A DNA stretch of 64,000 nucleotides, taken from assembly GCA_964612945.1 (NCBI GenBank), contig CAZTFR010000005.1, positions 1,716 to 65,715 on the forward strand, in the 5' to 3' direction. This document shows positions 1 through 59,551 of this stretch, piece after piece (position 1 is the stretch's first letter; every line of letters starts with the position of its first letter). Made by a program: the position numbers and the translations under genes. Below the pieces are notes generated by a model that was given only the letters and a program-made list of their open reading frames with translations, ran no database searches and was not told where the DNA came from. This DNA is from an uncultured Thermoplasmatales archaeon (GTDB lineage: Archaea > Thermoplasmatota > E2 > DHVEG-1).

Positions 1-63
1 CAGACCATCCTATAAGCATTGAAAACAATCAAATACTACTTCTGAATTACCACCACAAAAACC

Positions 64-1161
64 ATGACCAAACAAGATTACTACGAGATCCTTGGCGTAC
101 CCAAAGATGCAGACAAAAAACAAATTAAAAAAGCCTATAGAAAGCTTGCGCTCAAGTATCATCCAGACAAAAATCCATCAAAAGAAGCAACAGAAAAATT
201 CAAAGAAATCTCAGAAGCCTACGCGGTTTTAAGCGATGATGAAAAACGCCAGATGTATGATCAGTATGGTCATGCAGGAATCGATCAACGATACAGTACC
301 GAAGATATCTTCCGCGGCACCGATTTTCAGGACATCTTTCGAAACATGGGATTTGATTTTGGATTCGGCGTCGAAGACATCTTTGATCAATTCTTTGGAC
401 GACGAACCGGATTTCGCAGACAACCCCACCGACCACAGGGCCGCGATCTCCGCTATGACATCGAAATCAGCCTTGAAGATGCCTACCACGGCATGGAAAC
501 CGACATACGCATCCCCCGCACCGAACCCTGCGAGACCTGCAAAGGATCCGGTGCCAAACCAGGAACACAACCCAAACCCTGCCCGAAATGCAACGGCACC
601 GGACAAGCCCAGCAATCACGACGCACCGCCTTTGGCATGATGACCCAGATCACCACCTGCCCACAATGCAGAGGACAAGGAACTATCATAGACACACCCT
701 GCCCCGACTGCAAAGGACAGGGACTTATCCGCCGTACCCGAACCATCGAACTAAAAATACCACCAGGTGTCGACGAAGGATCACAACTCCGCCTCGAAGG
801 ACAAGGAGAACGACTGGGAAAACAAGGTATCGACGGCGATCTCTACATCGTCATACACATGAAAAAACACCCACAGTTCCACCGACGAGGAGACGACCTC
901 GTTCAAAAACAAACCATCACCTTTCCCCAAGCCGCACTCGGAGCACAACTCTCCATACCCACCATCACCAGCACCGAAACCATTAAAATCCCAAGCGGGA
1001 CACAACCTGGTGATCTCATCACCCTGAAAAACAAAGGAATGCCCCGCATCCAGGGCAGCAGACAGGGAAACATGTACATCGAAATTGACATCAAAACACC
1101 CACAAAACTTAATAGAAAAGCAAAAAAACTACTTGAAGAGCTCGAAAAAGAACTCTCCTAA
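64..1161 (+). CDS. dnaJ: Chaperone DnaJ (Hsp40), type I: J-domain, G/F region, four CxxCxGxG zinc-finger repeats, C-terminal domain
   Basis: N-terminus [12 protein letters not shown]...HPDKN carries the J-domain HPD motif. Four CxxCxGxG repeats follow ([32 protein letters not shown]). Length 365 aa. Coding strand is strongly C/A-rich. Confidence 0.95.
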
Positions 1162-1227
1162 CATAGACCGCAACATTTAAATAGAAGCTCTAACAAGTAT
1201 AGGGGTGACGACAAAAGGAGGCATGGC

Positions 1228-1791
1228 ATGGAGCCATTTGATAATAACAGAAATCGAAAAAGAAAAAATCCCTTCGACTTCATCTCAGACGACGAATTCG
1301 AAAAAATCTTTGATGAAATGCAAAAAATATTCGAACAAAACAACTTCAAAGACATCATAGAAGACATCATAAAAAACGGCATGGAACCAAACAAGAGGTT
1401 CATCCACGGATTCAGCATCAACCTTGGACCAGACGGCAAACCACACATCCAGGAATTTGGAAACAAACCCAAAAAAACACCCCAAGGAACCGCACGCATC
1501 TCCGACGAACAAGAACCACTCTCCGACATCATTGAAGGAGAAAGCGATGTCGCAATAACCGTCGAACTCCCCGGCGTCGAAAAAGACAACATCGATCTCA
1601 ACGTCACAGACACCATCCTCAACATCCATGTCGCCGACCCGCAGAGAAAATACCACAAAACCATTGATCTCCCCTGCGATGTGAAACCAAAAACCACCAA
1701 AGCAACCTACAAAAACGGAATCTTAGACATCGTCCTTAAGAAAAAAGACCCCGGTAAACCTGATGGCGGTTACCGCGTAACAATCGAATAA
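1228..1791 (+). CDS. hsp20: Small heat-shock protein, Hsp20/alpha-crystallin family
   Basis: C-terminal alpha-crystallin domain (ITVELPGVEKDNIDLNV...ILNIHV...GILDIVLKK). AAAGGAGG Shine-Dalgarno lies 5 nt upstream of the ATG. It is co-directional with dnaJ. Confidence 0.8.
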   Translation: MEPFDNNRNRKRKNPFDFISDDEFEKIFDEMQKIFEQNNFKDIIEDIIKNGMEPNKRFIHGFSINLGPDGKPHIQEFGNKPKKTPQGTARISDEQEPLSDIIEGESDVAITVELPGVEKDNIDLNVTDTILNIHVADPQRKYHKTIDLPCDVKPKTTKATYKNGILDIVLKKKDPGKPDGGYRVTIE

Positions 1792-1800
1792 AAAAAAAAA
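1791..1800 (-). terminator. Oligo-T tract (A-run on + strand) just downstream of the minus-strand regulator gene; candidate archaeal terminator
   Basis: A10-11 run between the convergent hsp20 and 1831..2211(-) genes. Archaeal terminators are oligo-T on the coding strand. Confidence 0.3.
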
Positions 1801-1830
1801 AGTAGAAAATAAGGGAGGGTCAACCCTTTA

Positions 1831-2811: not shown

Positions 2812-3336
2812 TCAAAAGAGTTCTTTGAATCGTTCGATATTGGGGTTGACCATGCCACATTTTTTGACGGGGAAAATATTCTCAAGAAGTTCGATGCCAT
2901 CAATGATTTGCTGATACTCGCGCATGAGGCTTTCGCTAAAACGCTTTATTTGTTTGATATCTTTTGATGTTAAAATAAACAGCCAATCAAATGCTCCATG
3001 CAGATAGCTACTGCAGATGACATTAACCCCAAGTTCTTCTCCTTTTTTGTGGATGGTGAGCTTGACGATTTTATCTATTGCATCGCCTGCTGGTTTATTG
3101 GATCGTTTGATGAGCATGTAGAAATGTTTGAGTTCTAGTTTTTCAAAATCAGCAACGGCATAGTAGCCCCAGATAGTTTTGTTTTTTTCCAGTCGTTTGA
3201 TAATTCGCCAGACTTTTTGTCGTGAAAAACCGCATTTTTTTGCAATGTTGTCAATGCTTTCTTTTGCATTTGTTTGGAGTTCTGCAAGAATCTTTTTTTC
3301 ATCTCTATCTATTTGGGCTCGGCTTGATTTTGGCAT
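2812..3336 (-). CDS. lrp: Lrp/AsnC-family transcriptional regulator (HTH + RAM domain)
   Basis: N-terminal HTH (LDEKKILAELQTNAKESIDNIAKKCGFSRQKVWRIIKRLEKN) and a C-terminal RAM-like domain. Length 174 aa. Confidence 0.8.
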   Translation of the reverse strand: MPKSSRAQIDRDEKKILAELQTNAKESIDNIAKKCGFSRQKVWRIIKRLEKNKTIWGYYAVADFEKLELKHFYMLIKRSNKPAGDAIDKIVKLTIHKKGEELGVNVICSSYLHGAFDWLFILTSKDIKQIKRFSESLMREYQQIIDGIELLENIFPVKKCGMVNPNIERFKELF

Positions 3337-3362
3337 AATACTACCTCCCCGTTACCAAAAGA

Positions 3363-3797
3363 CTATAACATTCTTCTCTTAAATAGCTTACTCTTTGTAC
3401 CATTTATTTCATCTATAGTGATTTTTCCAAGTGTCTTCGTTGATTGTTGTGCAGAAATGAGGGTGTGGACTTGTTTGGTGTGTTCGTTTACCGTAAGAAC
3501 TCCGATGTGGTTGCCAATGAGGGTGTATTGGTGTTTTCGCAGCAGGCTGTAGATGTTCATGAGAGGAACAGCAAGGTAGACGTAGTCGGCGCCAAGTTGG
3601 TAGTTTTTGAGTTGGATGAGTGCTTTTTTCCAATCGCTGAGTTTGAGTTCTACTGCGATGACGTGGGTGTTGTTGAGAGCGATGAGATCAGCGCGGCAGT
3701 ATCCGATGCGTATTTCTGAAAATACCTGGTATCCTTGTTGTTGGAAGTAGTGAGTGACAGGCGGGCGGAGTTCATGTTCCTTTGAGAAGTGTTGCAT
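3363..3797 (-). CDS. PD-(D/E)xK nuclease, Holliday-junction resolvase Hjc-like
   Basis: EHEL...GYQVF...RADLIALNNTHVIAVELK aligns with the Hjc ERELxxLLxxxGFxVxR...DLVA...IEVK core (E, D, E-x-K). Length 144 aa. It overlaps the 3' end of the upstream polB-like gene by 26 nt. Confidence 0.6.
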   Translation of the reverse strand: MQHFSKEHELRPPVTHYFQQQGYQVFSEIRIGYCRADLIALNNTHVIAVELKLSDWKKALIQLKNYQLGADYVYLAVPLMNIYSLLRKHQYTLIGNHIGVLTVNEHTKQVHTLISAQQSTKTLGKITIDEINGTKSKLFKRRML

Positions 3798-6018
3798 AGG
3801 TTTGTTTCCTCATTTTTTTGGTGTTTAGATAGTGTTCGAATGTTTCTTTGGTGTATCCAAAGGGGGTCAGTAGGCTTTCTGCGCATTTAGCGAGGTGCCG
3901 CCGGTAGAAATCACGGTCAGGGGTGGTTGTTTCGGTGAGAAATTCTGCGATTTTAACTCGGTTTCGGGGGTCAGATGCGTGTTCGTCGGTGACCAGGTAG
4001 CGGACGGTTTGTCCGGGTTCAAAGTGGATGCCTGCATCGCGGAGTTGTATCAGTGCAGCTTTGGTAAGCGTGTTTGCTTTGTAGTCGGTGATGTCTCGGC
4101 TGATCTGGATGGTAAAGAGGAGGTCTTGTAGGGGGACTGTGCCTTCGAGAAGATGTTGGTAAAACGTGAGAGGTATTTTGAGAGCATGGGGGATCTGTTC
4201 GTAGAATTCGGTGGTAGTATGTGCCTGGGCAAGCGTGGTAAGCATTTCTTTCTGCATGACTTTAAGAAACGGTGGTGTGTTTTTTTGTCTGAGTTCGACA
4301 CCGCGGATGCGTAGTTTTCCTGCTGTGTTGAGGCCGTAGTAGCGGTTGAGAGCACCAACGTCGGTGTTTTTGCTGGGGAGAAAGACGATCCAGTGATACG
4401 TTGCTTCGATGTCGATACGTATGCCTGTGTGGGTGCTGATGTGTCTGGCGAGCTGCTCCGGGGTGAGACGGGGCGTATACGGTTGTATCCACAGGGAGTC
4501 GACGATGCCATGCAGGACGTAGTAACCGTGATGTTCGACGAGGTTGATGGTGGAAAGCAGGATGTCGCGGCTGTAGGCGGTGATGCTTTCATGGCATTCG
4601 ATGCGTCCGTAGCGGGCGTTGCGGTAGCCGGTGTAGCCGAAGCAGACGAGAAGAATCCATTTCCAGGCTTGTTGGAGTTCTTCGTATGTTTTGGTGTTGT
4701 ACTGGGGGTGTCGGGCGCGTGCTTTAAAGCAGAATCGTCTGTTGAGTATGGGCTCCAGGACTTGGGGGATGAGTCCTTTTTGTTTGGTGCAGATGGGATA
4801 CTTCAGTTGAGGAACTCGGTGTGTGGAGGTGGGGCAGCAGGAGCAGAGCAGGGTTTCCGGGCTGATATTGTGTTGGACCATGATGTGGGGGTAGAGTGAG
4901 GCGTAGTCGAGTTCGATTGCGCCTTCATGCAGGCCGATGTGTGGTTCGAGGATGAGGCCGCCGCGGTCGGCATTGAGAAGATCCCAGCTGGTTTTCCAGG
5001 ATTCCGGTTGATTTTTCTTCCAGGGGATGAGATAGTCCTGGCTCATAGCGGTGTTGACCTGTATCTGGCTGATCGCCGTGCCGGGTCCCAGGCGGGAGAG
5101 CATCTGCAGAGGGATGTTTGCACAGCGGGAGATGTCCAGAAGCCCTCGCAGACCGCTTTCGCCGTAGAGAAACGAGTTTTTCTGGTCAAGATGCACGCGT
5201 CCTTTGAGGGTATAGAAGGGTGGTCGGTAGACGATGTGGCCATAGCTGAAGTAGGATTTTCCCTGTTTTGCAGGTGCTTCATGAATGTGATCTCGTCCCA
5301 GGGTGAACTGGTGACCGATTGCGGCCTGTTTGGCACGATGGTAGAGGTAGGGCAGAAGTGTGCTGTCTCCGTCGTGGGTGTAGATGATATCTGGGTCTGT
5401 TGTTTGGAGGTGTTTCATCGCCGAAAGCAGGGTGTCTGCCTCGTTTTCTTCCTGTATTTCCATGTCATCAAGGATGAGAGCGCGGAGAGGGTCATGATGT
5501 GTTTTGATTCGTGCGGTGGTGTTTCGGGTGGCAGACAGATGCAGAGTTTTATAAGAAGGAAGAGGGTAGTCGATTGCCCACTGATCATCATGGAGATGAA
5601 AACGGCGGCCGTCCCAGCTGACCTGAGCGTTGCAGAAGAGGTGATGGTCGTTGAGGTATCTGGTGGGCAGGCGGATGTCAACGTTGTAGAGCTGGTAGTG
5701 ATGGTAGTTTCCCCAGGAGTCGATAAGGGCGGGGAGCCGGTGGAAGGCTTCCAGTGTTTTTGGGATGACCGTTAGGAAAAGCGTGGGTTTGGAGGATCCC
5801 AGTGTTGTTTTGTTGTAGGTAAAGCAGTAGTGTTTAATTTCAGGGAGCTGCCGAAGGGTGCGGGCAAGTGCGGTGAGTTTTTCATGGGATGCCTTGATGG
5901 AGACGCTGGGATGGTAGGGAGGGTGTATTTTATAGGGACGATGTCTTCCGGTAAGCCAGATCGTCATCGTGTTGTGGTGAAAGTCAGGGTAGACGTCCAG
6001 GATGTGTCCATGTATCAC
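3772..6018 (-). CDS. polB: Family B DNA polymerase homologue (archaeal PolB-like), highly divergent and probably catalytically impaired
   Basis: Collinear with archaeal PolB: an N-terminal ILDVxY start, ExoI D-x-E (LDDMEI), FTLGRD, motif A DYASLYPH, motif B KWILLVCFGYTGY, motif C HGIVDS. The ExoII Asp, ExoIII Asp, motif-B N/S and the first motif-C Asp are all substituted. Extreme H/T/P/Y/Q-rich composition. GTG start. Confidence 0.85.
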   Translation of the reverse strand: MIHGHILDVYPDFHHNTMTIWLTGRHRPYKIHPPYHPSVSIKASHEKLTALARTLRQLPEIKHYCFTYNKTTLGSSKPTLFLTVIPKTLEAFHRLPALIDSWGNYHHYQLYNVDIRLPTRYLNDHHLFCNAQVSWDGRRFHLHDDQWAIDYPLPSYKTLHLSATRNTTARIKTHHDPLRALILDDMEIQEENEADTLLSAMKHLQTTDPDIIYTHDGDSTLLPYLYHRAKQAAIGHQFTLGRDHIHEAPAKQGKSYFSYGHIVYRPPFYTLKGRVHLDQKNSFLYGESGLRGLLDISRCANIPLQMLSRLGPGTAISQIQVNTAMSQDYLIPWKKNQPESWKTSWDLLNADRGGLILEPHIGLHEGAIELDYASLYPHIMVQHNISPETLLCSCCPTSTHRVPQLKYPICTKQKGLIPQVLEPILNRRFCFKARARHPQYNTKTYEELQQAWKWILLVCFGYTGYRNARYGRIECHESITAYSRDILLSTINLVEHHGYYVLHGIVDSLWIQPYTPRLTPEQLARHISTHTGIRIDIEATYHWIVFLPSKNTDVGALNRYYGLNTAGKLRIRGVELRQKNTPPFLKVMQKEMLTTLAQAHTTTEFYEQIPHALKIPLTFYQHLLEGTVPLQDLLFTIQISRDITDYKANTLTKAALIQLRDAGIHFEPGQTVRYLVTDEHASDPRNRVKIAEFLTETTTPDRDFYRRHLAKCAESLLTPFGYTKETFEHYLNTKKMRKQTYATLLKGT

Positions 6019-6873
6019 CTACTGCGTCCCTCCCACCGAGGGCGCTATTTTTTGAAGCGGGGTGAAGTCGTCAAGGCTTTTTTGTGCGGTATGGCAGTGA
6101 TTGATGTGTGCGGTGGTGTTTTGGTTGAGAAGATGAATATGTGTGTAGTGGTGACGGGTGGTAAGAGAAACGACTTCGTGGGCATGCTGGTAAAAGAGGG
6201 GTTTGAGCGGTCGTCGTTTCCAAAAGGAGCTTTTTGAGTGATGGGTAAGCAGGGTGATGAGCCGGTAGGTGGTGGTAAGTGTGTTGAGTTTTTGCAGGGT
6301 GTAGGTGAGAAGAGCGGTAGCTTCTTTTGCAGGGACATCAGGGTCAAAAAAAAGGGTGGGAAACATGCCAATGATAAGGGTGCGCGGGGTGATCTGCTTG
6401 ATCATGGGTTCAAGGTATTCTTCAACGAGTGTGGTGAGTTGGTAGACGGTAAAGGCACGGCAGAGATAGACATGTTTGAGGAGATGGTGTTGGTTGAGAT
6501 GAAGCTTTCGAGCGTATGAGGCGAGTTGGTAGGGGTTTGCCTGCATGCCGCCGTCCAGGTAGAGGGTGGTGCTTTTGAAGGTATGGTAGGTGGATGCACA
6601 GAGGCGGTCCGGGAGATCTTTTATGAGATCGCTGGTGCCATCGATTGCGATGAGCTGCCCGGCTTTGAAGCCACCGAGGAGACGGTCCAGAGTGGTGATG
6701 CCGGAGTGGATGAACAGCTCTGGTTGGCAGCGCTGCTGAGTGAGAAGAAGAGATCGATGTTGTGGTGCGTGCGAGTGATGCACAAGTGGTATGCTCATAA
6801 GAGATGGGTGCCCCCTACAGAAAAAATCTGGTGGTACGCAGGGGCATAGGCGGGTGATGTTAAAAAGATACAA
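6019..6873 (-). CDS. RadA/RadB (RecA-superfamily) paralogue with degenerate Walker A and B motifs (predicted pseudo-ATPase)
   Basis: SGITTLDRLLGG...LKHVYLCRAFTVYQL...LIIGMFPTLFFD aligns with RadB/RadA (TGSKSLDELLGGG...LKHIYVARAF...LLIVDS). The GxxGxGKT P-loop is replaced by IDGTSDLIKD, and the Walker-B Asp by Gly. Its TAG stop is immediately followed by the polB GTG, so the two are translationally coupled. The true start may be an internal Met. Confidence 0.65.
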   Translation of the reverse strand: MYLFNITRLCPCVPPDFFCRGHPSLMSIPLVHHSHAPQHRSLLLTQQRCQPELFIHSGITTLDRLLGGFKAGQLIAIDGTSDLIKDLPDRLCASTYHTFKSTTLYLDGGMQANPYQLASYARKLHLNQHHLLKHVYLCRAFTVYQLTTLVEEYLEPMIKQITPRTLIIGMFPTLFFDPDVPAKEATALLTYTLQKLNTLTTTYRLITLLTHHSKSSFWKRRPLKPLFYQHAHEVVSLTTRHHYTHIHLLNQNTTAHINHCHTAQKSLDDFTPLQKIAPSVGGTQ

Positions 6874-6909
6874 AGGGGGTCGTCGAAAGTATCTGCAACA
6901 GATAAAAAA

Positions 6910-7467
6910 TCAGAGATGAGATTGCTTTTTCTTTTTTTTCGATTTCTTAGAAGATGCTTCTTCTGTACCGAGATGCAGTGTTCCGGTGGGAAGCGGTTTT
7001 CCTTTTTCTACATAGGATTCTGCTCGATCAGAAAGGGATTGTTGCAGCTTAGTAAGTTCTCGTTCGAGCCTTTCGACTTCTTTTGTTTTTCCTTTCTGTT
7101 TGTATTCCTGGATTTTAGCCTGGAGAATCTCAATTTCTTTTTGAATCGTTTTGATCGCCTGAGCGACCCATTCCTCGATGTTTTGCTCGGTGAGCATCTC
7201 TTTAAGGCGTTGTTCGAACTGTGATCGATCAGTATCTTTGATTTTTGTATACGAACGTCTTTTGTAGGGATCAACAGATGCTGGTGTATGCAGTGGAGAT
7301 AGAGCAGCAGTCGTGCTTCCTTCTTTTTTGATGATCTCATTAATGCCCATACGAATAACATCACTCAGCGTCATCCCGAGCCGGTCTGCTATTTGAGTGA
7401 TATGCTGATACATCCACGGGGAAAGACGGATATGCACCATCGACTGCTCAGCTGATTTGTATACCAT
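6910..7467 (-). CDS. Ribbon-helix-helix (CopG/Arc-like) DNA-binding protein with a long K/E-rich coiled-coil tail
   Basis: N-terminal VHIRLSPWMYQHITQIADRLGMTLSDVIRMGINEII is a typical RHH beta-strand plus two helices. The C-terminal ~110 aa are heptad-like and charged, ending in a poly-Lys stretch. Confidence 0.5.
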   Translation of the reverse strand: MVYKSAEQSMVHIRLSPWMYQHITQIADRLGMTLSDVIRMGINEIIKKEGSTTAALSPLHTPASVDPYKRRSYTKIKDTDRSQFEQRLKEMLTEQNIEEWVAQAIKTIQKEIEILQAKIQEYKQKGKTKEVERLERELTKLQQSLSDRAESYVEKGKPLPTGTLHLGTEEASSKKSKKKKKQSHL

Positions 7468-7668
7468 TTTGATACCTTTTGTATATTAAAATAATATACA
7501 TATTTGGTCTATTTATAGTTTTTGTGCCAAAGCGTCAAAGAAACTCTCCGCCGCATCAGAACGTATTCCCCTGTTTTTTATTCGAAGCTTTTACAATAAA
7601 CATTATAATACCCCGACACCTTTATCCTTCAAGAAAAACAGAGTTATCTGTGGGGAGTTGGCATTCAT

Positions 7669-9105
7669 ATGACACAAGTAAGCTTTTACGGCGGCGTCGA
7701 CGAAATCGGCGGAAACAAGATTCTTCTCGAAGATCAAGACACCCGCATCTTTCTTGACTTCGGACTGGGCTTTAAACGACGGGGCATGTACTTTGAGGAA
7801 TTCCTCACCCCCCGATCTGCAAACGGCATCGGCGATTTTCTTGAACTCAACCTACTCCCGGACATCCCTGGCATCTACCGAACCGATCTGCTCAGCCATC
7901 TCGGACGAACCCCTGAAGACGTCACCGTCCAAGCAGTCCTCTTAAGTCACGCCCACGCCGATCACGCCAACTACATCTCCTTTCTCCACCAAGACATACC
8001 TGTCTACTGCGGGGAGACCTCAAAATATCTCCTGCAAGCAATCGAAGAACAATGCATCAGAAGCATCGAAAACGAGGTCACAAAATACAAAGAACGACCC
8101 ATCTACCGCGGCGACTACAAAAAACCACCTATCAAACGCACCTTCAACACCTTCCGAACCGGCGACACCGTACACATCGGATCCCTGGACATCGAACCCA
8201 TCCATGTCGACCACAGCGTCCCCGGTGCCTACGGCTTTCTCATCCACACCTCAGAGGGAACCATCGTCTACACCGGCGATCTGCGCATGCATGGAAAAAA
8301 CGCACAAATGACCACCGACTTCATCCAAAAAGCACGAAAAGCAAAACCAGTCGCCCTCATCACCGAAGGAACGCGCATCGACCTCCCCCAAACCGATGAA
8401 TCCGAACAAAACGTCTACCAGCAGTCCAAACAGGAAATAGAGCAATGCAAAAAACTTTCTATCGTCGACTTTAACTTCAAAGACATCGACCGGTTCACCA
8501 CGTTTTATCAAATCGCAAAAGACCTCGGAAGAACACTGGTCATCAGCTTCAAACACGCCTGCTTTCTCGAACGATACCACCAAGACAAAAAACTACAAGC
8601 CCCCAACAGCACCGACAAGCACATCAAACTTCTCAAACCCAAACGCCTCACCGGCACCTACATCGACGAAGACTACACCGACTACTATATAAAGAAACGA
8701 CTGAATTATGAAAACATTATCACCGCCGAAGACATCACCAAAAACCCCACACAGTACATGGTCGTCCTCAACTTCTACTACTTCAACCGAATGGTCGATC
8801 TCAAACCACATCACGGCGTCTACATCCACAGCCTCTCCGAACCCTTCAACGAAGAAATGGAAATCAGCTACGAACGCATGCACAACTGGCTCACCCACTA
8901 CCACCTCAAATTTGTCCAATCACACTGCTCCGGACACATCTCCGGACCAGATCTCAAAGACCTCATCCACAAAATCAACCCAAAACACCTCTTCCCCATC
9001 CACACCGAACACCCCGAGCTCTTCCAAGACTTCCCTATGCACGTCACACGCGTACAAGAAGGAAAAACATATACCCTACCCACGCAAAAAATACTAAACC
9101 ATTAG
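7669..9105 (+). CDS. rnj: Metallo-beta-lactamase/beta-CASP ribonuclease, archaeal RNase J-like
   Basis: Starts MTQVSFYGGVDEIGGNKILLE. HAHADH (the HxHxDH motif) is present, followed by a beta-CASP region. No N-terminal KH domains, so aCPSF1 is excluded. Length 478 aa. Confidence 0.75.
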   Translation: MTQVSFYGGVDEIGGNKILLEDQDTRIFLDFGLGFKRRGMYFEEFLTPRSANGIGDFLELNLLPDIPGIYRTDLLSHLGRTPEDVTVQAVLLSHAHADHANYISFLHQDIPVYCGETSKYLLQAIEEQCIRSIENEVTKYKERPIYRGDYKKPPIKRTFNTFRTGDTVHIGSLDIEPIHVDHSVPGAYGFLIHTSEGTIVYTGDLRMHGKNAQMTTDFIQKARKAKPVALITEGTRIDLPQTDESEQNVYQQSKQEIEQCKKLSIVDFNFKDIDRFTTFYQIAKDLGRTLVISFKHACFLERYHQDKKLQAPNSTDKHIKLLKPKRLTGTYIDEDYTDYYIKKRLNYENIITAEDITKNPTQYMVVLNFYYFNRMVDLKPHHGVYIHSLSEPFNEEMEISYERMHNWLTHYHLKFVQSHCSGHISGPDLKDLIHKINPKHLFPIHTEHPELFQDFPMHVTRVQEGKTYTLPTQKILNH

Positions 9106-9119
9106 GAGAATGAAACCCT

Positions 9120-10196
9120 ATGACTGATATCTATCAGTATGATAAAAAAAACGAACAAAACCTGATAAAAGCAGACTCTGTGAAACGCAAAAAAGAACAA
9201 TACATCGAAAATCTCAGAGAGGGAGATGCAGTCGGCGACTTTTTCGCTGTCAAATCCAAACGACCTCTCCGCCCTTACAAACGAGGAACCTTCTTTGAAC
9301 TCATCGCAGGCGACAAAACCGGCGATATCAGCATCAAATACTGGGGGGGAGACAACAAAGACCGCGTCAAACGACTCTACGACAGCTTCGACATCGGAGA
9401 CGTCATACAGATACGCACCGGCGCAGTTGAAATCTTTGAAGAAAAAATGCAAATATCAGTCAACGAACAAACCGGTGGTCTTCGAAAATGCGCACCCACA
9501 GAATACGATGCCTCAGATTTTCTTGCCACACTCACCGAAGAAGAAATTAACAATCTCTACAAAATCGTCGAAACAGAAATCAAAAATCTCACCAACAAAT
9601 CACTCCAAACCCTACTTGCCGAATTCTTCAACGACGCCACCTTTGTCAAACAATTCAAAGCATCGCCCTCAGCGATGACCCATCACCATAACTACATCGG
9701 CGGAAACCTCGAACACACCGTCGGCGTCATACAGCTCACCAAAACCATCTGCACACAATATCCAGATATCAACCAGGATCTTGTGATATGCGGAGCCATC
9801 CTTCATGATGTCGGAAAACTCAAAGAATACGAATACACCGCCGCCATAGGCAAAACCGATGAAGGCAACTTCATCGGACACATCGTCATGGGCGACCGCT
9901 GGATACAGGAAAAAATCGGCATACTCCGAAACAAAGGAACAGCCTTTGCCGAACCACTTGAATTACAACTCCGCCACATGATCTTAAGCCACCATGGCCG
10001 CTACGAATACGGATCACCACGGATGCCACAAACCACCGAAGCAGTCGTCCTCCACCAAGCAGATCTAATGGATTCACAGGTCAAAAACTATCTACAGAAT
10101 GTAAAAGACGCCAGAAAAAACTCTGACTCCGACTGGGCGTTTATTTATGATCCCGATGTGGGGATGAGACGACCCATGTATTTAGGAAAAGACTAA
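9120..10196 (+). CDS. OB-fold + HD-domain phosphohydrolase, YhaM-like 3'-5' exonuclease family
   Basis: An N-terminal OB-fold segment (GDAVGDFFAVKS...GDVIQIRTGAVEIFEEKMQISV) is followed by an HD domain (HHNYIGGNLEHT...ILHDVGK...HH). The architecture matches bacterial YhaM. Confidence 0.7.
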   Translation: MTDIYQYDKKNEQNLIKADSVKRKKEQYIENLREGDAVGDFFAVKSKRPLRPYKRGTFFELIAGDKTGDISIKYWGGDNKDRVKRLYDSFDIGDVIQIRTGAVEIFEEKMQISVNEQTGGLRKCAPTEYDASDFLATLTEEEINNLYKIVETEIKNLTNKSLQTLLAEFFNDATFVKQFKASPSAMTHHHNYIGGNLEHTVGVIQLTKTICTQYPDINQDLVICGAILHDVGKLKEYEYTAAIGKTDEGNFIGHIVMGDRWIQEKIGILRNKGTAFAEPLELQLRHMILSHHGRYEYGSPRMPQTTEAVVLHQADLMDSQVKNYLQNVKDARKNSDSDWAFIYDPDVGMRRPMYLGKD

Positions 10197-10222
10197 AAAA
10201 CATACAACAGGTTGCACGCATC

Positions 10223-10396
10223 ATGAAAAAGGATTTAATAAAGATCTTATGCTGCCCGAGCTGCAAGAGCGATCTTAAGCTAAACGTTAAAAAACAAGAA
10301 AACGATGAAATAATCACAGGATCATTTATCTGCAAAAAATGCGATGTCACCTACCCCATCAAAGATGGGATCCCCGATCTTCTACCGAGAAAATAA
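10223..10396 (+). CDS. Trm112-like small zinc-ribbon protein (DUF343 family); not in the ORF track because it is under 60 aa
   Basis: 57-aa ORF MKKDLIKILCCPSCKSDLKL...FICKKCDVTYPIKDGIPDLLPRK. It has a CPxC...CxxC zinc ribbon and the conserved Y-P-I-x-D-G-I-P motif of Trm112/YcaR proteins. Confidence 0.6.
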   Translation: MKKDLIKILCCPSCKSDLKLNVKKQENDEIITGSFICKKCDVTYPIKDGIPDLLPRK

Positions 10397-10425
10397 CACC
10401 ATCCATCAGTTTATCTTTTACTATA

Positions 10426-29642: not shown

Positions 29643-29646
29643 ATCT

Positions 29647-35592: not shown

Positions 35593-35740
35593 ATTTATCC
35601 CCTTACTTCTATTGTTTAGACGACTATTTTATATATAGTTTATTTGGAATTCATCGAATTAATTATGAATATAATATAAAAATGATGATATGTATTATAA
35701 CTCTTTGTTAGGATACGAAAAAAAGAGAGGAGATATGATG

Positions 35741-42168: not shown

Positions 42169-42482
42169 AATACTCTACCTGTGGGAAATTCGTGGGTATA
42201 TGTATATTGTAGTATTTAAAAATTTCTATTGTACATACCTCCATAGCTCACATATTTAGAACTAATCGGAGAAACAAAAAATTGGTACAACAGACACCTC
42301 ACAAAAATACCTCAAACAAAAACCCAGCCACCACAAAAACACACATCGAATTTGCAGAAGAATACTACCGACAAGAACCCAAAGACTGTTTTTTACACGC
42401 ACTCCGAAAACATAAAAAAGGGTGAAATCAAGAGATGGAAAAAATAGGCTCTCTCACCAATATTCTCTGCTGTAGACAAGTA

Positions 42483-42554
42483 TGGACTCGTCGGGATTTG
42501 AACCCGAGGCCTCTTCCATGCCAAGGAAGCGATCTTCCGCTGATCTACGAGCCC
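42483..42554 (-). tRNA. tRNA-Ala (anticodon GGC)
   Basis: Cloverleaf folds by hand: acceptor GGGCUCG/CGAGUCC with a G3:U70 wobble pair (the Ala identity element), D-stem GAUC, anticodon stem CUUCC/GGAAG with loop UUGGCAU, T-arm UCGGG-UUCAAAU-CCCGA, discriminator A. CCA is not encoded. Length 72 nt. Confidence 0.85.
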
Positions 42555-48169: not shown

Positions 48170-48206
48170 AAAACAGCAGGATATACCACCCTCTTGATGT
48201 ATTCAT

Positions 48207-50917: not shown

Positions 50918-51871
50918 ATGCATCTTATCATGAGTGGAGAGGATATTGATATTGGATATGTGATTAAAACATCATTCACCTCAGTTTTTCATGACCCCGG
51001 GTATATTCTTCTCTATGCTCTTCCAACGCTTGTCTTTTCGGTTTTTTTTGTGATACTATGGTATCTCTTTGGGTATAACATGATGAGTTTTACTGATCAA
51101 ACTCAAATGCAATCAATCATAAATGACAATATCATACTCGTTATAGGCTTAGGTCTCACATTTATTATTTTACTGATCGTTATTCATGTAAGTGTCATAG
51201 CAGCAGTAGTAAAAAAAGTGGATGCCCAACAGAAGGGGGGAAAGCTTGGCATCCGAGATGCATTACAGCAGGGATTTCAACTTGTTCCCCGCTTATTTGC
51301 TTCCATGATTCTTTTTTTCATTATTATCGCACTACCAATTATTGCACTTGTTGGCCTTATGATAGCAGGTACAATATCTGGTCTCTTCGCACTTATCTGT
51401 CTTTCAGCAGGGCTGTTAGTTATCCTTATTATTCCTCTGATTTATTTTTCCCTACGACTGAATTTGTTTAAACAATCATGTGTACTTGAAAATAAAGGCC
51501 CTCTTGATAGCTTGAAACATAGCTGGACGATAACCAAAGGAAATGTGCTGTATATCTTTGTAATATTGCTGATTATCGGAATTATCGGATTTGTTATTTT
51601 CCTACCGTTTATGCTGCTAAATATCTATTTTACGTTCAGTACTCTTTTCTCTGAAGGATTCATAACTTCAAATTCCTCCAGTTTTAACCAAACCGGTCTC
51701 GCTTTTCAAGGATTTTCTGCTATGTCATTTATCCCCTTAATAGGACAGATCATTGTCCAGCTTATTATAGCCCCAGTAACGGAAATCGCACTCACCCTGA
51801 TTTTCCTAAAGTTAACAAAAAAAACAGAAACATCTACCAAACCATTAGAAGTCAGCGAATGGCCAGAGTAG
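50918..51871 (+). CDS. Polytopic membrane protein (hypothetical)
   Basis: 317 aa with about six to seven TM helices. No recognisable motif. Confidence 0.5.
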   Translation: MHLIMSGEDIDIGYVIKTSFTSVFHDPGYILLYALPTLVFSVFFVILWYLFGYNMMSFTDQTQMQSIINDNIILVIGLGLTFIILLIVIHVSVIAAVVKKVDAQQKGGKLGIRDALQQGFQLVPRLFASMILFFIIIALPIIALVGLMIAGTISGLFALICLSAGLLVILIIPLIYFSLRLNLFKQSCVLENKGPLDSLKHSWTITKGNVLYIFVILLIIGIIGFVIFLPFMLLNIYFTFSTLFSEGFITSNSSSFNQTGLAFQGFSAMSFIPLIGQIIVQLIIAPVTEIALTLIFLKLTKKTETSTKPLEVSEWPE

Positions 51872-51877
51872 CCTCTT

Positions 51878-52447
51878 TTATTTACCCGTATCGAGAATCG
51901 TTCGGTTCTGTTTTCGAAAACACACTAATTCATCAAAAATGACTCCAATACTTACTCCAGTAATCCCACCCGCAAGAAGACCAGTGATAACTCGGACAAG
52001 ATTAGAGCTCTCCCAGAGACCAATAACCTGCCCAAATCCATCCACAGCAATGGGAGATAAACAGAGCAATAGAAACAGAAGAAATTTTTCATCTAAAGTA
52101 ACTCGATAAAACACAGTAAAACCAATGCCTATGACTACCCCAAGCCAGATCGCTGTACACCGACTGCAAAAAGGCATAGAATTTTCATTGAACATAAATG
52201 ATCGTTCGATTCGTTGATGACACATCACATCTCCGATCATATACACTTGACCCCAAGGGAATCCAAGATGAGAAAAATCATTTTCGTTATCTATTAAAAA
52301 AACAACCCCCGAACAATCGGTAAGTGTATTATTTGGTACGACAAATGGTGCCGCAAACAAAAGGACAACCCACAGTAAAAAAACAAGGAATATAAAAAAA
52401 AGAGGTGATCTAAAACACTTTCCCTTGCGTTCCATTCTCAAATTCAT
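51878..52447 (-). CDS. DUF2085-family membrane protein
   Basis: CHQRIERSF...CSRCTAIWLG matches the DUF2085 CHQRxxRSF...CxRCxG signature. The start may be the internal Met at 52435. Confidence 0.6.
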   Translation of the reverse strand: MNLRMERKGKCFRSPLFFIFLVFLLWVVLLFAAPFVVPNNTLTDCSGVVFLIDNENDFSHLGFPWGQVYMIGDVMCHQRIERSFMFNENSMPFCSRCTAIWLGVVIGIGFTVFYRVTLDEKFLLFLLLCLSPIAVDGFGQVIGLWESSNLVRVITGLLAGGITGVSIGVIFDELVCFRKQNRTILDTGK

Positions 52448-52988
52448 CCCGCGCAGAAATAATTAATCCTAATGCAATCAACGACAGAATAATACCAACA
52501 AACAGTCCAATAGAAAATACACCAAGAACGGCACATAACAAGGAAATACAAAAGAAACGTCTTTGAAATGAGGTGAGTGCACCAATAAAAGCGAAACAAG
52601 AGAACACAAGCAAGAACACGGCGACAAGCACATTATTGGTCACCGGACCGGGGAGATTGGAAATAAGTCCTTCAAGCTCCGGAAAAAGAATATGTTCACT
52701 TGACCAATAGACAACAGAAGTAAAAAGCCCTAAAATACCTACAGCAAGTAGAAAAAACGATGCAAACATCGGTTTGTTGCTATTATGTTTTAATGAGGAA
52801 AGAATCGTCTTCCGTGGCTCACCATGCTCCTCCCACCCACAGTCCTTTTTCTCCTCATCTTTACAGATCCGCTTGATCGTAAAGGTCTGTTTACACTTAG
52901 GACATGTCACGATATGAGTATCCTTACCCTCAGGGATATCTGCGACAAACTCCACAGAACACTTAGGACATATCGTTTTTCCTTTCAT
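52410..52988 (-). CDS. Membrane protein with an N-terminal double zinc-ribbon
   Basis: CPKCSVEF...CPKCKQTF zinc ribbon, followed by four hydrophobic helices. Length 192 aa. Confidence 0.5.
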   Translation of the reverse strand: MKGKTICPKCSVEFVADIPEGKDTHIVTCPKCKQTFTIKRICKDEEKKDCGWEEHGEPRKTILSSLKHNSNKPMFASFFLLAVGILGLFTSVVYWSSEHILFPELEGLISNLPGPVTNNVLVAVFLLVFSCFAFIGALTSFQRRFFCISLLCAVLGVFSIGLFVGIILSLIALGLIISARDEFENGTQGKVF

Positions 52989-53226
52989 AATCAGAAACCG
53001 GGATAGGTGTTCCTCGTTAAAGAATATTTCTGTCTTTTTAAAAAGTCACCCCCTCCATGATATAAATATCATGGCTTCCCCCTCAAGGGGGATAAAGCGC
53101 CTTTCGGCGTTTTAGGTTAAACAGTCCGGGCGATACATCCCAACGCTAAAGCATTGGGTTTTCTCGCTCGGTTTCCATAACAAAAAAAACTATCACACAA
53201 CGTACCATCGCCTCTTCTGACAGCAT

Positions 53227-53234
53227 CTTTAAAT
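53227..53234 (+). promoter_or_regulatory. TATA-box-like element (TTTAAATA) upstream of rpl40e
   Basis: Match to the archaeal TATA consensus about 42 nt upstream of the rpl40e ATG. Two stable hairpins lie further upstream (53079-53092 and 53096-53118). Confidence 0.3.
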
Positions 53235-53275
53235 AGCACCTGCATATTCCTCGTACACCAGAAAGGCGATAGCAC

Positions 53276-53425
53276 ATGGCACGCTTTCCAGAATCAGAAA
53301 AACGATTACTCATCAAAAAAATTTGCATGAAATGTGGCGCAAGCAATGCACCAAAAGCAGATCGGTGTAGACACTGCCGATCAAAAGAACTGCGCTTTAA
53401 AGCAAAGGAAGGACGAGGAACCTAA
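53276..53425 (+). CDS. rpl40e: 50S ribosomal protein L40e; missed by the ORF track (49 aa)
   Basis: [49 protein letters not shown] matches the L40e MARFPEAE...KKICxxCxARN...RCRKCG pattern, including the C4 zinc ribbon. Confidence 0.85.
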
Positions 53426-53506
53426 AGTAGGATACGATAAACTGGAAAAAACAGGTATCTTTTTAAAAACACATTCCATTTTTTAGTGTGAGCAGTTGGA
53501 GCATAT

Positions 53507-54925
53507 ATGCCTGAAACCAAAACAAAAAAAAGCGACGATTTCAACGAATGGTACAATGAAATCGTCGAGCTCGCTGATCTCTGCGATAAACGATACCCCA
53601 TCAAAGGCATGAATGTCTGGAAACCCTATGGCTGGACATTAATGACCAATGTCGATCGGCTTATCCGCACTCACATGAATCGCACTCACCATCAAGAAGT
53701 CTACTTCCCGCTTCTCATCCCAGAATCCTTTTTTAAAAAAGAAGAAGAACACATCGAAGGATTTGGAAGTGAAGTCTTTTGGATCACCCATGCTGGTGCA
53801 AACAAACTCGAGGAACGATGGCTTCTTAGACCAACATCTGAAACCGCGATGTATCCCATTTTTTCACTCTGGATTCGCGCGCATACCGATCTCCCCCTAA
53901 AGACCTTTCAAATCGTCAACACCTTTCGCTATGAGACCAAACAAACACGAGCCTTCATCCGAGTTCGAGAGATCCATTTTTTTGAAGCACACACCTGTCA
54001 CAAAGATGAAGAAGACGCAGAACGACAAATCAAGGAAGACAAAGAAATCGCTAACCAGTTTCTCAACCAACTCAGTCTCCCCTATCTTTTAAGCATTAGA
54101 CCAGACTGGGATAAATTCGCAGGAGCAGTGTATACGGTCAGCATTGATGTTCTCATGCCGTCTCTTCGCACCCTTCAGATTGGATCAATTCACCAATACC
54201 ATGAAAACTTCGCAAAACCCTATGAGATCACCTATGAAACCGAGCAAGGAACCCATAAACCAGTTCATCAAACCACCTATGGCATGAGCGAGCGGCTCTT
54301 GGGCGCAGTCGTTGGCGTTCATGGGGACAACAAAGGCCTTATTCTCCCGCCAGAAGTCGCACCCATACAAGTTGTGATCATCCCTATCATCTTCAAAGGA
54401 AAAGAAAAAGAGGTACTTTCGGCCTGTTCTATGCTTGAAGAGAGCCTACACAAACAGCAGATAAGAACGCATCTAGACAACCGAGATAGTACCCCCGGAA
54501 ACAAATATTACGAATGGGAGCTCAAAGGAGTGCCCTTGAGAGTAGAAATTGGACCGCGGGATATCAAAGAAAAGAAAATGGTTCTTGTCCGACGAGACAA
54601 GACAGAAAAAACAAGTATACCGCTTGATACTGCAGAAAAAGAAATTCAAAAAACACTCCAAGACATCAAAGAATCACTCTTTCAAAACGCACATACATTA
54701 CTCGAAAACAATATGCATCGGGTGAGCACCCTTCAAGAGGCGACCAGATTTTCAGGAATCATAGAACTCCCCTGGTGTGGCAATGAAAAATGTGCTCTTG
54801 AAATCGAAAACATTTTAGAGGGAAATACGATTGGGAAACCAGTAGATACGCAGGAGTGCCCGCACCCCTGCCCTATCTGCAACAAACCAGGAGTTACCTG
54901 GATGAGATACGCAAAATCATACTAA
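53507..54925 (+). CDS. proS: Prolyl-tRNA synthetase (archaeal/eukaryotic-type class II)
   Basis: FNEWYNEIVELADL...YPIKGMNVWKPYG N-terminus, class-II motifs, and a C-terminal zinc-binding CxxC...CxxC segment. Length 472 aa. Confidence 0.9.
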   Translation: MPETKTKKSDDFNEWYNEIVELADLCDKRYPIKGMNVWKPYGWTLMTNVDRLIRTHMNRTHHQEVYFPLLIPESFFKKEEEHIEGFGSEVFWITHAGANKLEERWLLRPTSETAMYPIFSLWIRAHTDLPLKTFQIVNTFRYETKQTRAFIRVREIHFFEAHTCHKDEEDAERQIKEDKEIANQFLNQLSLPYLLSIRPDWDKFAGAVYTVSIDVLMPSLRTLQIGSIHQYHENFAKPYEITYETEQGTHKPVHQTTYGMSERLLGAVVGVHGDNKGLILPPEVAPIQVVIIPIIFKGKEKEVLSACSMLEESLHKQQIRTHLDNRDSTPGNKYYEWELKGVPLRVEIGPRDIKEKKMVLVRRDKTEKTSIPLDTAEKEIQKTLQDIKESLFQNAHTLLENNMHRVSTLQEATRFSGIIELPWCGNEKCALEIENILEGNTIGKPVDTQECPHPCPICNKPGVTWMRYAKSY

Positions 54926-54945
54926 AAGGAGGGAAAAGAAACACA

Positions 54946-55320
54946 ATGGCAGGAAGAATTACCCGCATGCTACGAGAGTATATCATCATGTTTAGTATAC
55001 TTGTCTTAATTATCGGCGGGATACTTTTTATCATGGGATTTCTCTGGTTGTTCTTTGTGGATACAGTCAAAGATACCTTCATCAATGAACTGGGATATGC
55101 AAATATATATATGATAGTAGCAGGTCTAATCCTCATGGTCACCGGTGCCTATTACCTCTATAGTTTTTATCGAAAAAGAAAGTTTGTCCTTGAAGAAATC
55201 CAAACCAAAAAACGATCCGAATTTCTGAAAAAACATAAAGAACTCAAATCCACCGTGAAACATCTTCCCACAAAATACCAACAGATGGTCAAAGACAAAG
55301 AAGCAGAACTCAAAATATAA
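54946..55320 (+). CDS. Small two-TM membrane protein (hypothetical)
   Basis: ATG preceded by AAAGGAGGG about 10 nt upstream. Two hydrophobic helices and a basic C-terminal tail. The track ORF extends upstream into proS. Confidence 0.45.
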   Translation: MAGRITRMLREYIIMFSILVLIIGGILFIMGFLWLFFVDTVKDTFINELGYANIYMIVAGLILMVTGAYYLYSFYRKRKFVLEEIQTKKRSEFLKKHKELKSTVKHLPTKYQQMVKDKEAELKI

Positions 55321-55355
55321 AAAACATCTTCTCCTTTTCAAAAAGATGTCACACT

Positions 55356-56081
55356 ATGACTTCGAAAACATCAAAGTACATTGTTGTCCTTGTTGAACCA
55401 AAATATGGCGGCAACATCGGCGCTGTTGCACGAGCCATGATGAACTTTGATTTTCCTACTCTTTATCTTGTTAATCCCTGCGAATTTGACACAGAATGCT
55501 ACGCTCGCGCCATGCACGCACGCTCACTTCTTGACAACGCCAAAATCTTCAAAAGCTTCAAAGAAGCACAAAAACAACTCGATTACTGTATTGCAACCTC
55601 ATCAATCACCACAACATCAGAAAAAAAACATCTTCGCAAACCAATCACCCTACACACGCTCACGCAACAACTCCCCCAGGTCACCGGAACCATCGGTCTT
55701 ATCTTCGGCAGAGAAGACTACGGACTCTACAACGCTGAACTCGCCGCCTGCGATGTGATGTTACATATACCAACCAGCAACTCATATCTCTCCCTGAATC
55801 TCTCCCATGCCGTTACCATCGTTTTATACGAACTATACACCTATCAACATGACACAACCAACCCAAAACGAGAGTTAGGAAACATTGAAAAAGAAAAACT
55901 TCACGACTACTTTTCCCTTCTGCTTGACAAAATTAACTACCCGGATCATAAAAAAGAAAAAACAAAAATCATGTTCAGACGGATCATGGGACGAGCCATG
56001 CCCTCCACCTGGGAGTACCATACCTTGATGGGCGTGTTTACCAAACTCCTCGAAAAAGAAAGAAAAAATAAAAAAAAATAA
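55356..56081 (+). CDS. trmJ: SPOUT-class RNA methyltransferase, TrmJ-like (tRNA 2'-O-methyltransferase)
   Basis: VVLVEPKYGGNIGAVARAMMNFDF (SpoU motif 1), IFGREDYGL (motif 2), LNLSHAVTIVLYE (motif 3). Confidence 0.7.
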   Translation: MTSKTSKYIVVLVEPKYGGNIGAVARAMMNFDFPTLYLVNPCEFDTECYARAMHARSLLDNAKIFKSFKEAQKQLDYCIATSSITTTSEKKHLRKPITLHTLTQQLPQVTGTIGLIFGREDYGLYNAELAACDVMLHIPTSNSYLSLNLSHAVTIVLYELYTYQHDTTNPKRELGNIEKEKLHDYFSLLLDKINYPDHKKEKTKIMFRRIMGRAMPSTWEYHTLMGVFTKLLEKERKNKKK

Positions 56082-56091
56082 CACCACCAAG

Positions 56092-56316
56092 CTAAATGGT
56101 TTCAATTTTAAAATACACATGACACTTTTTTAAGGCAGCTTGCACACGATCAGCAAAAAAAATTAGTTCATTAATATCCGCACGCTCATTCCCCCAATCA
56201 TACACAAAATCATAGTTCCCCTGAGCTGCCTTAAATCCAAGATTCAACAGACTATTTTTTACCTCAGAGGGAAGCGCACCTTCACTATCGAACATGATCT
56301 GAAGATAGGTTTTCAA
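56092..56316 (-). CDS. Hypothetical small protein
   Basis: 74-aa ORF filling the gap between trmJ and the M50 protease. No motif. Weak call. Confidence 0.3.
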   Translation of the reverse strand: MKTYLQIMFDSEGALPSEVKNSLLNLGFKAAQGNYDFVYDWGNERADINELIFFADRVQAALKKCHVYFKIETI

Positions 56317-56384
56317 AAAACCACCTCACCACAGATAAGAATTCAGTACATAATAATAAAGATTACCCTCTAAAATCTACACAT

Positions 56385-57521: not shown

Positions 57522-57607
57522 GCGACCAGTCGATAGAAACTCTCTCTTATAAACTCTTCGACAACAGAAGAAAAAAATTCATAACACCCTTCTAAATACC
57601 TACCCCC

Positions 57608-59551
<1,944 letters not shown>

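Follow-up and report, generated by a model that had tools for sequence, protein, structure and literature searches.

What does it mean when the two strands of a chromosomal segment differ so strongly in composition that the encoded proteins are altered as well? This question was raised by positions 3400-6900 of a 64-kb window (the whole 64,000-nucleotide stretch analyzed here) from an uncultured Thermoplasmatota archaeon. The original prediction described this block as G+T-dominated on its + strand and as encoding PolB-like and RadB-like proteins rich in His, Thr, Pro, Gln, Tyr and Leu, and it proposed either relaxed constraint or a virus, a plasmid or an organelle-like element as the source. 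Our analyses confirmed that the skew is real, yet it is not specific to the block, which was shown to carry a predicted operon of ordinary chromosomal kind (iRadA, the family-B polymerase PolB2 and a small PD-(D/E)XK protein), putatively for translesion synthesis. The explanation we favour, with a probability of roughly 0.55, is a strand-asymmetric T>C and G>A pressure on the sense strand of whole DNA domains, with a polarity probably tied to the direction of transcription, acting over this chromosomal operon.

Skew domains and their polarity

The + strand of the block consists of A 0.199, C 0.164, G 0.354 and T 0.283, so that the expected dominance of G+T is borne out (63.7%, keto skew +0.273). 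Its GC content is 0.52, compared with 0.42 for the whole window, and a 1-kb profile across it ranged from +0.22 to +0.41 in GC skew and from -0.08 to -0.28 in AT skew. All three genes of the block lie on the - strand and therefore have A+C-rich sense strands, as seen in the coding strand of PolB2 (A 0.287, C 0.353, G 0.173, T 0.187). Four-fold degenerate sites, read on the coding strand, have skews of -0.32 to -0.41 in these genes. This is mainly an excess of C over G (C 0.49-0.50 and G 0.13 in PolB2 and iRadA; C 0.39 and G 0.08 in the PD-(D/E)XK gene); A and T are about equal at four-fold sites within the block, and the A excess arises at codon positions 1-2. The proteins are indeed dominated by the six residues named above, which together account for 43.4% of PolB2, 51.4% of iRadA and 40.3% of the PD-(D/E)XK protein, compared with 27-29% in AT-rich PolB2 orthologues.

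The block was also supposed to stand out from its contig, and this was only half the picture. Ranked by absolute skew it falls in the top 0.7% of 3.5-kb windows, but its skew is matched or exceeded elsewhere: the 3.5-kb window at 55201-58700 (-0.281) matches it, 7901-10400 (-0.31) is more skewed at the 2.5-kb scale, and none of the five most extreme 500-bp windows falls within it. The DnaJ, Hsp20, beta-CASP RNase, HD/YhaM-like and OsmC-like genes likewise exceed the block, with four-fold skews of -0.66 to -0.77.

Binary segmentation divided out four strongly skewed segments, with signs -, +, - and - in order along the window, which make up around 25% of its length. The block belongs to the second of these, a domain at 3033..7333 delimited by segmentation and fine profile (keto skew +0.27, GC skew +0.32, AT skew -0.21, GC 0.49). 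A first domain of opposite sign (1..1812, -0.32) contains the genes for DnaJ (64-1161, +; four-fold skew -0.72) and Hsp20 (1228-1791, +; -0.77), and in the fine profile its skew stops at the Hsp20 stop codon. The third (7844..10408, -0.31), again of opposite sign, contains a beta-CASP/RNase J-like gene (7669-9105, +; -0.72) and an HD/YhaM-like gene (9120-10196, +; -0.66), and here the skew continues for around 200 nt beyond the stop codon of the HD gene into the 3' spacer. Polarity flips between the second and third domains at 7334..7843, an unskewed region (keto skew -0.03) that includes an AT-rich divergent spacer and separates the beta-CASP gene from the side of the ribbon-helix-helix (RHH) gene and the PolB2 operon. 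The 41 kb beyond the third domain are flat (+0.02) up to the fourth (51733..59334, -0.21), which mixes the two gene orientations: it encodes DUF2085 and a 192-aa protein (-), then ProRS, a transmembrane protein and TrmJ (+), an M50 protease (-), and an OsmC-like protein and PurA (+). Its + strand is A+C-rich whatever the orientation of the gene.

We argue from these and related loci that polarity belongs to multi-gene DNA domains of 2-8 kb and not to single genes. Among the strongly skewed genes of five skewed loci, 51 have an A+C-rich sense strand and six are reversed (p = 6e-10). One of the reversed kind is the M50 site-2 protease gene of the fourth domain (56385..57521, -; Pfam M50), which is surrounded by + strand genes but whose own coding strand is rich in G+T, with a four-fold skew of +0.41. 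Its amino acids are shifted in the direction opposite to those of PolB2, with less Thr (0.024 versus 0.048, z = -3.0), more Phe and Val, and a G+V+F+W+C share of 0.275 versus 0.228 +/- 0.018. Two 6.2-kb loci, L019 and L020 (JGI 3300017527 and 3300017613), which stem from a much nearer relative of the organism, have around 74% nucleotide identity to the window, are syntenic with its 54.6-60.8 kb region and show the same domain-wide skew; their M50 protein is 79% identical. In L019 the M50 gene reaches +0.64 amid PurA at -0.49, OsmC at -0.75 and TrmJ at -0.33, and in the unskewed loci L021 and L022, with the same gene order, it stands at 0.00-0.01. A further embedded gene was found in locus L016, where TiaS (12768-14105, +) has a four-fold skew of +0.68 and the flanking genes on the opposite strand have -0.85 and -0.74.

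Two simpler explanations for the reversed M50 gene were tried and rejected. Codon usage peculiar to membrane proteins does not account for it: membrane genes such as SecY do not depart from baseline, a mild G+T bias occurs in the genes for the cytosolic CarA, for Trm5 and for a C25 peptidase, and M50 itself is unskewed in L021 and L022. A recent inversion is ruled out by synteny with L019, L021 and L022, the gene order from ProRS to PurA being common to these loci and the window; this skewed block, moreover, continues into unskewed ancestral neighbours including Cbf5.

Spacers and two-fold sites gave the same picture. All 12 intergenic spacers within same-polarity domains follow the polarity of their domain (62.1% of 1,469 bases, p = 2e-20), and at two-fold sites C/(C+T) was 0.69 in the block, 0.28 at baseline and 0.08 in the embedded - strand genes. 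In a regression over 109 genes, the effect of the neighbours was 0.75 +/- 0.07 and that of a gene's own orientation -0.12 +/- 0.02 (R2 0.70). Embedded genes, spacers and regression together argue against selection acting at the level of codons or of a gene's own mRNA and against recent inversion, and in favour of a lasting strand-asymmetric process that acts on the DNA itself.

The PolB2 operon under nucleotide pressure

The labels PolB-like and RadB-like could be refined to PolB2 and iRadA. PolB2 (3772..6018, -; 748 aa, GTG start), a predicted family-B translesion DNA polymerase, matches Pfam DNA_pol_B over residues 320-718 (E 1.6e-33) and, weakly, exo1 (2.7e-8); it matches archaeal PolB in the PDB with an E of 6e-41 and scores 434 bits, below the cutoff, against the NCBIfam 'type B DNA polymerase' model NF004416. 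Motif A is retained (DYASLYPH in the window, DxASLYPN across the family). Motif C reads HGIVDS in the window, with IVD for DxD, and HGI[IV]DS replaces YGDTDS in all 13 orthologues; substitution of the first Asp of DxD is a hallmark of PolB2, the motif being IID in S. islandicus (Timinskas et al., 2025; PMC11791011). The DxE column of Exo I, the exonuclease motif compared, is variable (LSATR, FDVQ, FEIR).

Upstream lies the gene for iRadA (6019..6798, -), a predicted Rad51/RadA paralogue with a weak Pfam Rad51 match (E 0.005), several orthologues of which carry PF08423. Its mechanically called open reading frame (ORF) reaches 6873, with a TTG start; alignment of orthologues indicates that the real start is probably the ATG at 6798, which would give 259 aa. 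When iRadA was aligned to RadA of the related locus L014, the Walker A motif GEFGSGKTQ was found replaced by IDGT-SDLI and the N-terminal helix-hairpin-helix region of around 60 residues was absent, so that iRadA is predicted to be a RecA/Rad51 core with its ATPase residues missing and without the N-terminal oligomerisation domain. Its stop codon (6019-6021) abuts the PolB2 start at 6018, and the same layout was seen in every locus that reaches upstream of PolB2.

The third gene (3363..3797, -), whose start overlaps the 3' end of PolB2, encodes a small PD-(D/E)XK-like protein of 144 aa with matches to PDDEXK_9 (E 6e-4) and the sce7726 family (E 7e-10), both below cutoff. An orthologue with 44-53% identity adjoins PolB2 in 12 of the 13 loci, L009 being the exception, and an ORF occupies the same position in L014. 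The gene is thus a conserved downstream partner of PolB2 in Thermoplasmatota, predicted to be nuclease-like; no nuclease partner is named in the paper describing the PolB2 mutasome (PMC11791011), which consists of PolB2, iRadA and the small helical partner PPB2. In 15 related loci (L001-L010, L012, L013, L016-L018) an 84-aa DUF8156 gene with 56-85% identity lies between iRadA and PolB2, which from its position and size we infer to be PPB2 (arCOG07300). In the window, L014 and L015 the iRadA-PolB2 junction leaves no room for such a gene, and tblastn of the 64-kb window gave no match with E < 1; the gene may sit elsewhere in the genome. Nothing indicated that PPB2 is fused to iRadA or encoded in a different frame, and no integrase, repeats or tRNA were found at the borders of the block. 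Apart from its composition, the block is therefore ordinary: a putative PolB2 translesion operon that lacks PPB2 and includes a small, conserved gene of nuclease-like type.

Searches retrieved >1,500 PolB2 homologues, the closest of which have 51-61% identity and come from contigs of uncultured Thermoplasmatota. The operon was syntenic and co-oriented in all 13 genome loci, with a Rad51-like gene upstream wherever the locus extends there. Most relatives lack the skew. Their PolB2 genes have a coding-strand A+C of 0.47-0.52 and 12-14% H+T+P+Q (0.64 and 26% in the window), and four-fold skew lies between about -0.3 and +0.48 in most orthologous operons and between about -0.04 and +0.40 in their PolB2 genes; only L011, L014, L016 and L018 resemble the window. 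The skew is thus shown to be derived and lineage-specific. The skewed PolB2 proteins (P0070/P0045, P0114 and P0090) are only 52-58% identical to that of the window and to each other, except for the P0070-P0045 pair at 67%; each has unskewed nearest neighbours, and a monophyletic skewed clade was not found. Loci of the other skewed PolB2s show the same patchy pattern with neighbours unrelated to those of the window, and GC at four-fold sites varies from 0.20 to 0.86 among their genes (0.36 to 0.86 in L016, 1-17720, alone). The trait is either old with repeated loss or has arisen several times. No PolB2 as close to that of the window as the L019 and L020 relatives was found in any database.

The skew does extend into amino-acid usage, as had been proposed. 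Compared with AT-rich orthologues, PolB2 of the window has His raised 3.2-fold, Thr 2.6-fold and Pro and Ala 1.5-fold, with Val at 0.44 and Lys at 0.57 of their level. It nevertheless keeps 333 of 395 strongly conserved columns, a deviation of 13.5% compared with 10-17% in unskewed orthologues. At these columns, codon positions 1+2 have a skew of -0.02 (+0.03 to +0.07 in orthologues) and position 3 has -0.50 (mostly +0.10 to +0.32, with L009 at -0.01); at variable columns, positions 1+2 reach -0.51 (-0.13 to -0.28 in orthologues), L011 being left out of all these ranges. We used this comparison in place of dN/dS because synonymous sites are saturated between orthologues of 51-61% identity. It shows that the nucleotide pressure saturates weakly constrained sites of PolB2 and that purifying selection holds the conserved residues; across the domains the sites affected are four-fold sites, variable residues and spacers. 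The proteins gain His, Thr, Pro, Ala and Gln at the expense of Val, Lys, Phe and Asn, and still keep the motifs of their families. The skew thereby inflates protein divergence and could mislead phylogenies.

Long alternative and antisense frames are by-products of the same pressure. Three such ORFs had been pointed out and explained by a strand poor in stops, and all three exist as described. Stop trinucleotides are 3.3-fold depleted on the - strand of the block (0.0154, baseline around 0.050), and the spurious ORFs at 4050..4592 (-; 180 aa, +1 frame of PolB2) and 6045..6371 (-; +1 frame of iRadA) are open because of this depletion on the sense strand. The explanation fails for the spurious 282-aa ORF at 4927..5775 (+), the + strand having a normal stop frequency of 0.0503. 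This is a codon-aligned antisense frame of PolB2, and it is open because PolB2 never uses TTA (0 of 749 codons) and uses CTA or TCA only six times; two of these six codons, at 5775 and 4899, set its limits. Long spurious ORFs on both strands can confuse gene callers.

Possible causes of the skew

A strand-asymmetric transition bias, with T>C and G>A on the sense strand, is the candidate explanation that fits these patterns best, and its polarity may follow the dominant direction of transcription. An excess of these transitions would equal A>G and C>T on the complement. Leu in the block is encoded by CTN in 99% of cases, and the depletion of G and T is constant among lineages, the A:C ratio being variable (OsmC four-fold sites have A 0.67 and C 0.21 in L019, A 0.44 and C 0.44 in the window). 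The polarity of a segment would most likely be set by the dominant direction of RNA polymerase over it, because 51 of 57 strongly skewed genes are A+C-rich in sense and the skew stops near the ends of transcription units; it is also missing from the divergent promoter region at 7334-7843. The changes might be introduced when an error-prone polymerase repeatedly resynthesizes the template strand, its commonest errors being T:dGTP and G:dTTP mispairs; preferential damage to the template strand would be an alternative route.

Weakly expressed genes on the opposite strand might in turn be overrun by read-through. Oligo-T tracts act as termination signals in archaea, and read-through is plausible because a T-poor sense strand is nearly devoid of them. 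In the domains at 1-1812, 3033-7333 and 7844-10408, tracts of five or more T (T5+) occur on the sense strand at 0, 1.2 and 0.4 per kb, compared with a baseline of 3.3-4.2, and the antisense strand carries an excess of them (6.5-12.7 per kb). The - strand has none from 3226 to 6345; from PolB2 through the PD-(D/E)XK gene to the stop codon of the Lrp gene, its only tract is the one at 3225. Depletion of T could just as well produce this scarcity by itself.

Several observations weigh against a transcription-linked pressure. Ribosomal-protein genes and SecY are almost unskewed, so that the skew does not simply track expression, and it is even along gene bodies, with no 5'-3' gradient. Transcription-associated asymmetry in E. 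coli and mammals runs in the direction opposite to an A+C-rich sense strand. The polarity test on each gene's own sense strand gave 51 against 6, yet the effect of neighbours exceeds that of own orientation, and three of the 12 same-polarity spacers lie between divergent genes and also carry the domain polarity. The 51.7-59.3 kb domain comprises several divergent and convergent units, with some T5 tracts on the path of read-through; mixed units, T5 tracts and skewed divergent spacers therefore call for either extensive read-through or a non-transcriptional mechanism. The excess of A over T at four-fold sites runs counter to the direction seen in 91.7% of prokaryotic genomes (PMC4844684). Finally, the near-identical loci L014 and L015 differ at six sites and the similar pair L019 and L020 at five, too few for a mutation spectrum.

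A bolder form of the favoured explanation holds that several divergent Thermoplasmatota lineages independently gained a kilobase-patchy, strand-asymmetric mutation of mitochondrial magnitude, T>C and G>A on the transcribed-sense strand. We regard this as tentative and rather doubtful. If true, it would override the codon usage of embedded genes and rewrite up to a quarter of protein composition; its cause may be repair synthesis or deamination of the template strand, the mutational input coming from transcription and repair and not from replication. The skew map would then preserve, as fossils do, a trace of where RNA polymerase has travelled over the long term in archaea that cannot be cultivated.

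Selection on codons or RNA seems an unlikely primary cause. It would favour C- and A-ending codons for their Watson-Crick pairing with G34 and U34 tRNAs, an A+C-rich mRNA that stays unstructured at rising GC since A does not pair with C, or cheap nucleotides (C over G). The skew indeed peaks at third positions with C- and A-ending codons, both tRNAs of the window have G34, and four-fold C>G is the common direction in prokaryotes (PMC4844684). Predicted folding is also weak: the PolB2 mRNA, at 53% GC, has -0.172 kcal/nt, close to the -0.176 of a 35% GC orthologue, and a symmetric sequence of equal GC has -0.285 and unskewed orthologues of 44-45% GC about -0.245 kcal/nt. Such folding is compatible with a selective benefit. 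Selection of this kind is, however, hard to reconcile with embedded opposite-strand genes that pass the baseline the other way, and only in skewed lineages, with skewed spacers between divergent genes, or with variable amino-acid positions shifted as much as synonymous sites. Relative synonymous codon usage (RSCU) of the block correlates poorly with that of the contig's translation genes (r = 0.22), and the excess of A over T is opposite to what cheap nucleotides would predict.

We consider it quite improbable that the asymmetry stems from replication, through leading and lagging strands or single-strand exposure of the mitochondrial type, with polarity flips caused by inversion or translocation. 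This would explain why the polarity inside a domain does not depend on which way a gene points and why the complementary strand shows C>T and A>G, the classical pattern of single-strand deamination, with an opposite-strand gene resembling mitochondrial ND6. The strongly skewed genes of the window also share an A+C-rich + strand, save for the PolB2 block and an ORF at 48890-49789, and each relative has different genes around the PolB2 operon, which implies that the operon has moved. However, two flips occur among the three domains of the first 10.4 kb and polarity is absent from the 41 kb that follow in the 64-kb window, and in L014 and L016 polarity flips every 5-10 kb in step with gene direction. 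The skewed ProRS to PurA segment is ordered as in unskewed relatives and adjoins unskewed ancestral neighbours, and the embedded-gene pattern has lasted at 74% nucleotide identity, over which inverted segments should have re-equilibrated.

Transfer of the block from a virus, a plasmid or a compositionally different donor is highly improbable, even though its GC exceeds that of the window (0.52 versus 0.42), horizontal movement of PolB2 operons among archaea has been reported (PMC11791011), the neighbours of the operon vary among relatives and it is flanked by two small AT-rich regulator genes that have no skew. In phages and plasmids the best matches have only 30-34% identity, and IMG/VR yielded none; all close relatives are Thermoplasmatota contigs carrying the same operon, syntenic in 13 loci, and the syntenic core genes ProRS, TrmJ, M50, OsmC and PurA are equally skewed. 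The proposed comparison of codon usage with ribosomal-protein and other translation genes gave the low correlation mentioned above, but RSCU of the block agrees with that of its DnaJ, Hsp20, RNase and HD neighbours at r = 0.91, so the block is not set apart locally. The suggestion of a different mutational regime thus survives as the best reading, though as a regime of patches in the host chromosome and not of a foreign replicon. It is scarcely credible that PolB2 and iRadA are under relaxed constraint, keeping no more than their fold, or are turning into pseudogenes. The Exo I motif is not conserved, motif C has lost its first Asp, iRadA lacks Walker A and the operon lacks PPB2, but these motif losses are family-wide traits of active PolB2 systems, all three ORFs and motif A are intact, and conserved columns are kept as in unskewed orthologues, with positions 1+2 unskewed.

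The small genes around the operon differ in how far they share its composition. Directly upstream of iRadA, a gene with a four-fold skew of +0.02 and a GC content at third positions (GC3) of 0.40 (6910..7467, -) encodes a 185-aa protein that combines a coiled coil with an RHH-like N-terminus; the overall A+C excess of the gene comes from a Lys/Glu/Gln-rich composition. Downstream, an Lrp/AsnC-type regulator gene (2812..3336, -; Pfam HTH_24 and HTH_AsnC) has a four-fold skew of -0.52, as in the operon, but a GC3 of only 0.38. A MarR-family gene beside Hsp20 (1831-2211, -) resembles the RHH-like gene in being unskewed at synonymous sites, both having a four-fold skew of +0.02 and a low GC3 (0.37-0.40 for the two); both are small genes of DNA-binding type at the edges of skewed operons. 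Further along the window, 21421-39850 (-) holds five successive large ORFs (805, 846, 1106, 1981 and 1369 aa) with AT-rich third positions and weak skew; these probably encode secreted or surface proteins, and the 805-aa ORF, the first of the five and the one scanned, has C25 peptidase and PKD domains. Rfam and tRNA scans gave tRNA-Ala(GGC) at 42482-42555 (-) and tRNA-Ser(GGA) at 48206-48293 (+) as the only RNA genes. The promoter and terminator scan was of the bacterial type and uninformative for archaeal DNA.

Comparison with known systems

Literature searches found no description of this skew pattern in Thermoplasmatota. A parallel of similar magnitude is vertebrate mitochondrial DNA, where genes with L-strand sense are A+C-rich and ND6, on the other strand, is G+T-rich. 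In both cases the sense strand is poor in G+T and amino-acid usage is reshaped; DnaJ, Hsp20 and beta-CASP have four-fold GC skews of about -0.8 and AT skews of about +0.5 to +0.6, and M50 resembles ND6 in lying on the opposite strand with mirror-image codon and amino-acid bias. Unlike vertebrate mitochondrial DNA, the skewed DNA here belongs to a cellular archaeal chromosome and occurs in 2-8 kb patches with repeated changes of polarity, most of the contig being unaffected.

In Borrelia, Chlamydia and Lawsonia, too, a strand mutational bias governs codons, shifts amino acids and is reversed in minority-strand genes (PMC2671203, PMC3269012). That bias spans whole replichores and makes the leading strand G+T-rich, in contrast to the local skew observed here, which follows the majority gene direction and gives an A+C-rich sense. 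Transcription-associated four-fold skews (Chen et al., 2016; PMC4844684) are likewise linked to the sense strand, with C>G at synonymous sites. The present skews are far larger than these and run in the minority direction of A>T (T is favoured in 91.7% of genomes); replacement sites shift the same way and not towards A/G, and embedded genes and spacers follow the domain. The operon itself agrees with the PolB2 mutasome (Timinskas et al., 2025; PMC11791011) in having Ile for the first Asp of DxD, a non-conserved acidic Exo I motif and an adjacent co-oriented iRadA without Walker A and N-terminal domain, and differs from it in having no PPB2 in the operon or the 64-kb window and a PD-(D/E)XK gene after PolB2.

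If the skew is mutational, it would reflect a strand- and domain-specific process of DNA damage or repair not described for archaea. It also has practical consequences, since a GC3 spread of 0.3 to 0.86 within one genome could be read by composition-based tools as contamination or horizontal transfer. Strand asymmetry and mutation-driven amino-acid usage are already known, and the patchy, domain-wide form with an A+C-rich sense is an unusual variant of them: it is about as strong as in vertebrate mitochondrial DNA, it affects only 2-8 kb patches of a chromosome in an archaeon, every gene and spacer within a patch has one polarity, which in most cases is that of the prevailing gene direction, and it recurs in PolB2 lineages that are only 52-58% identical.

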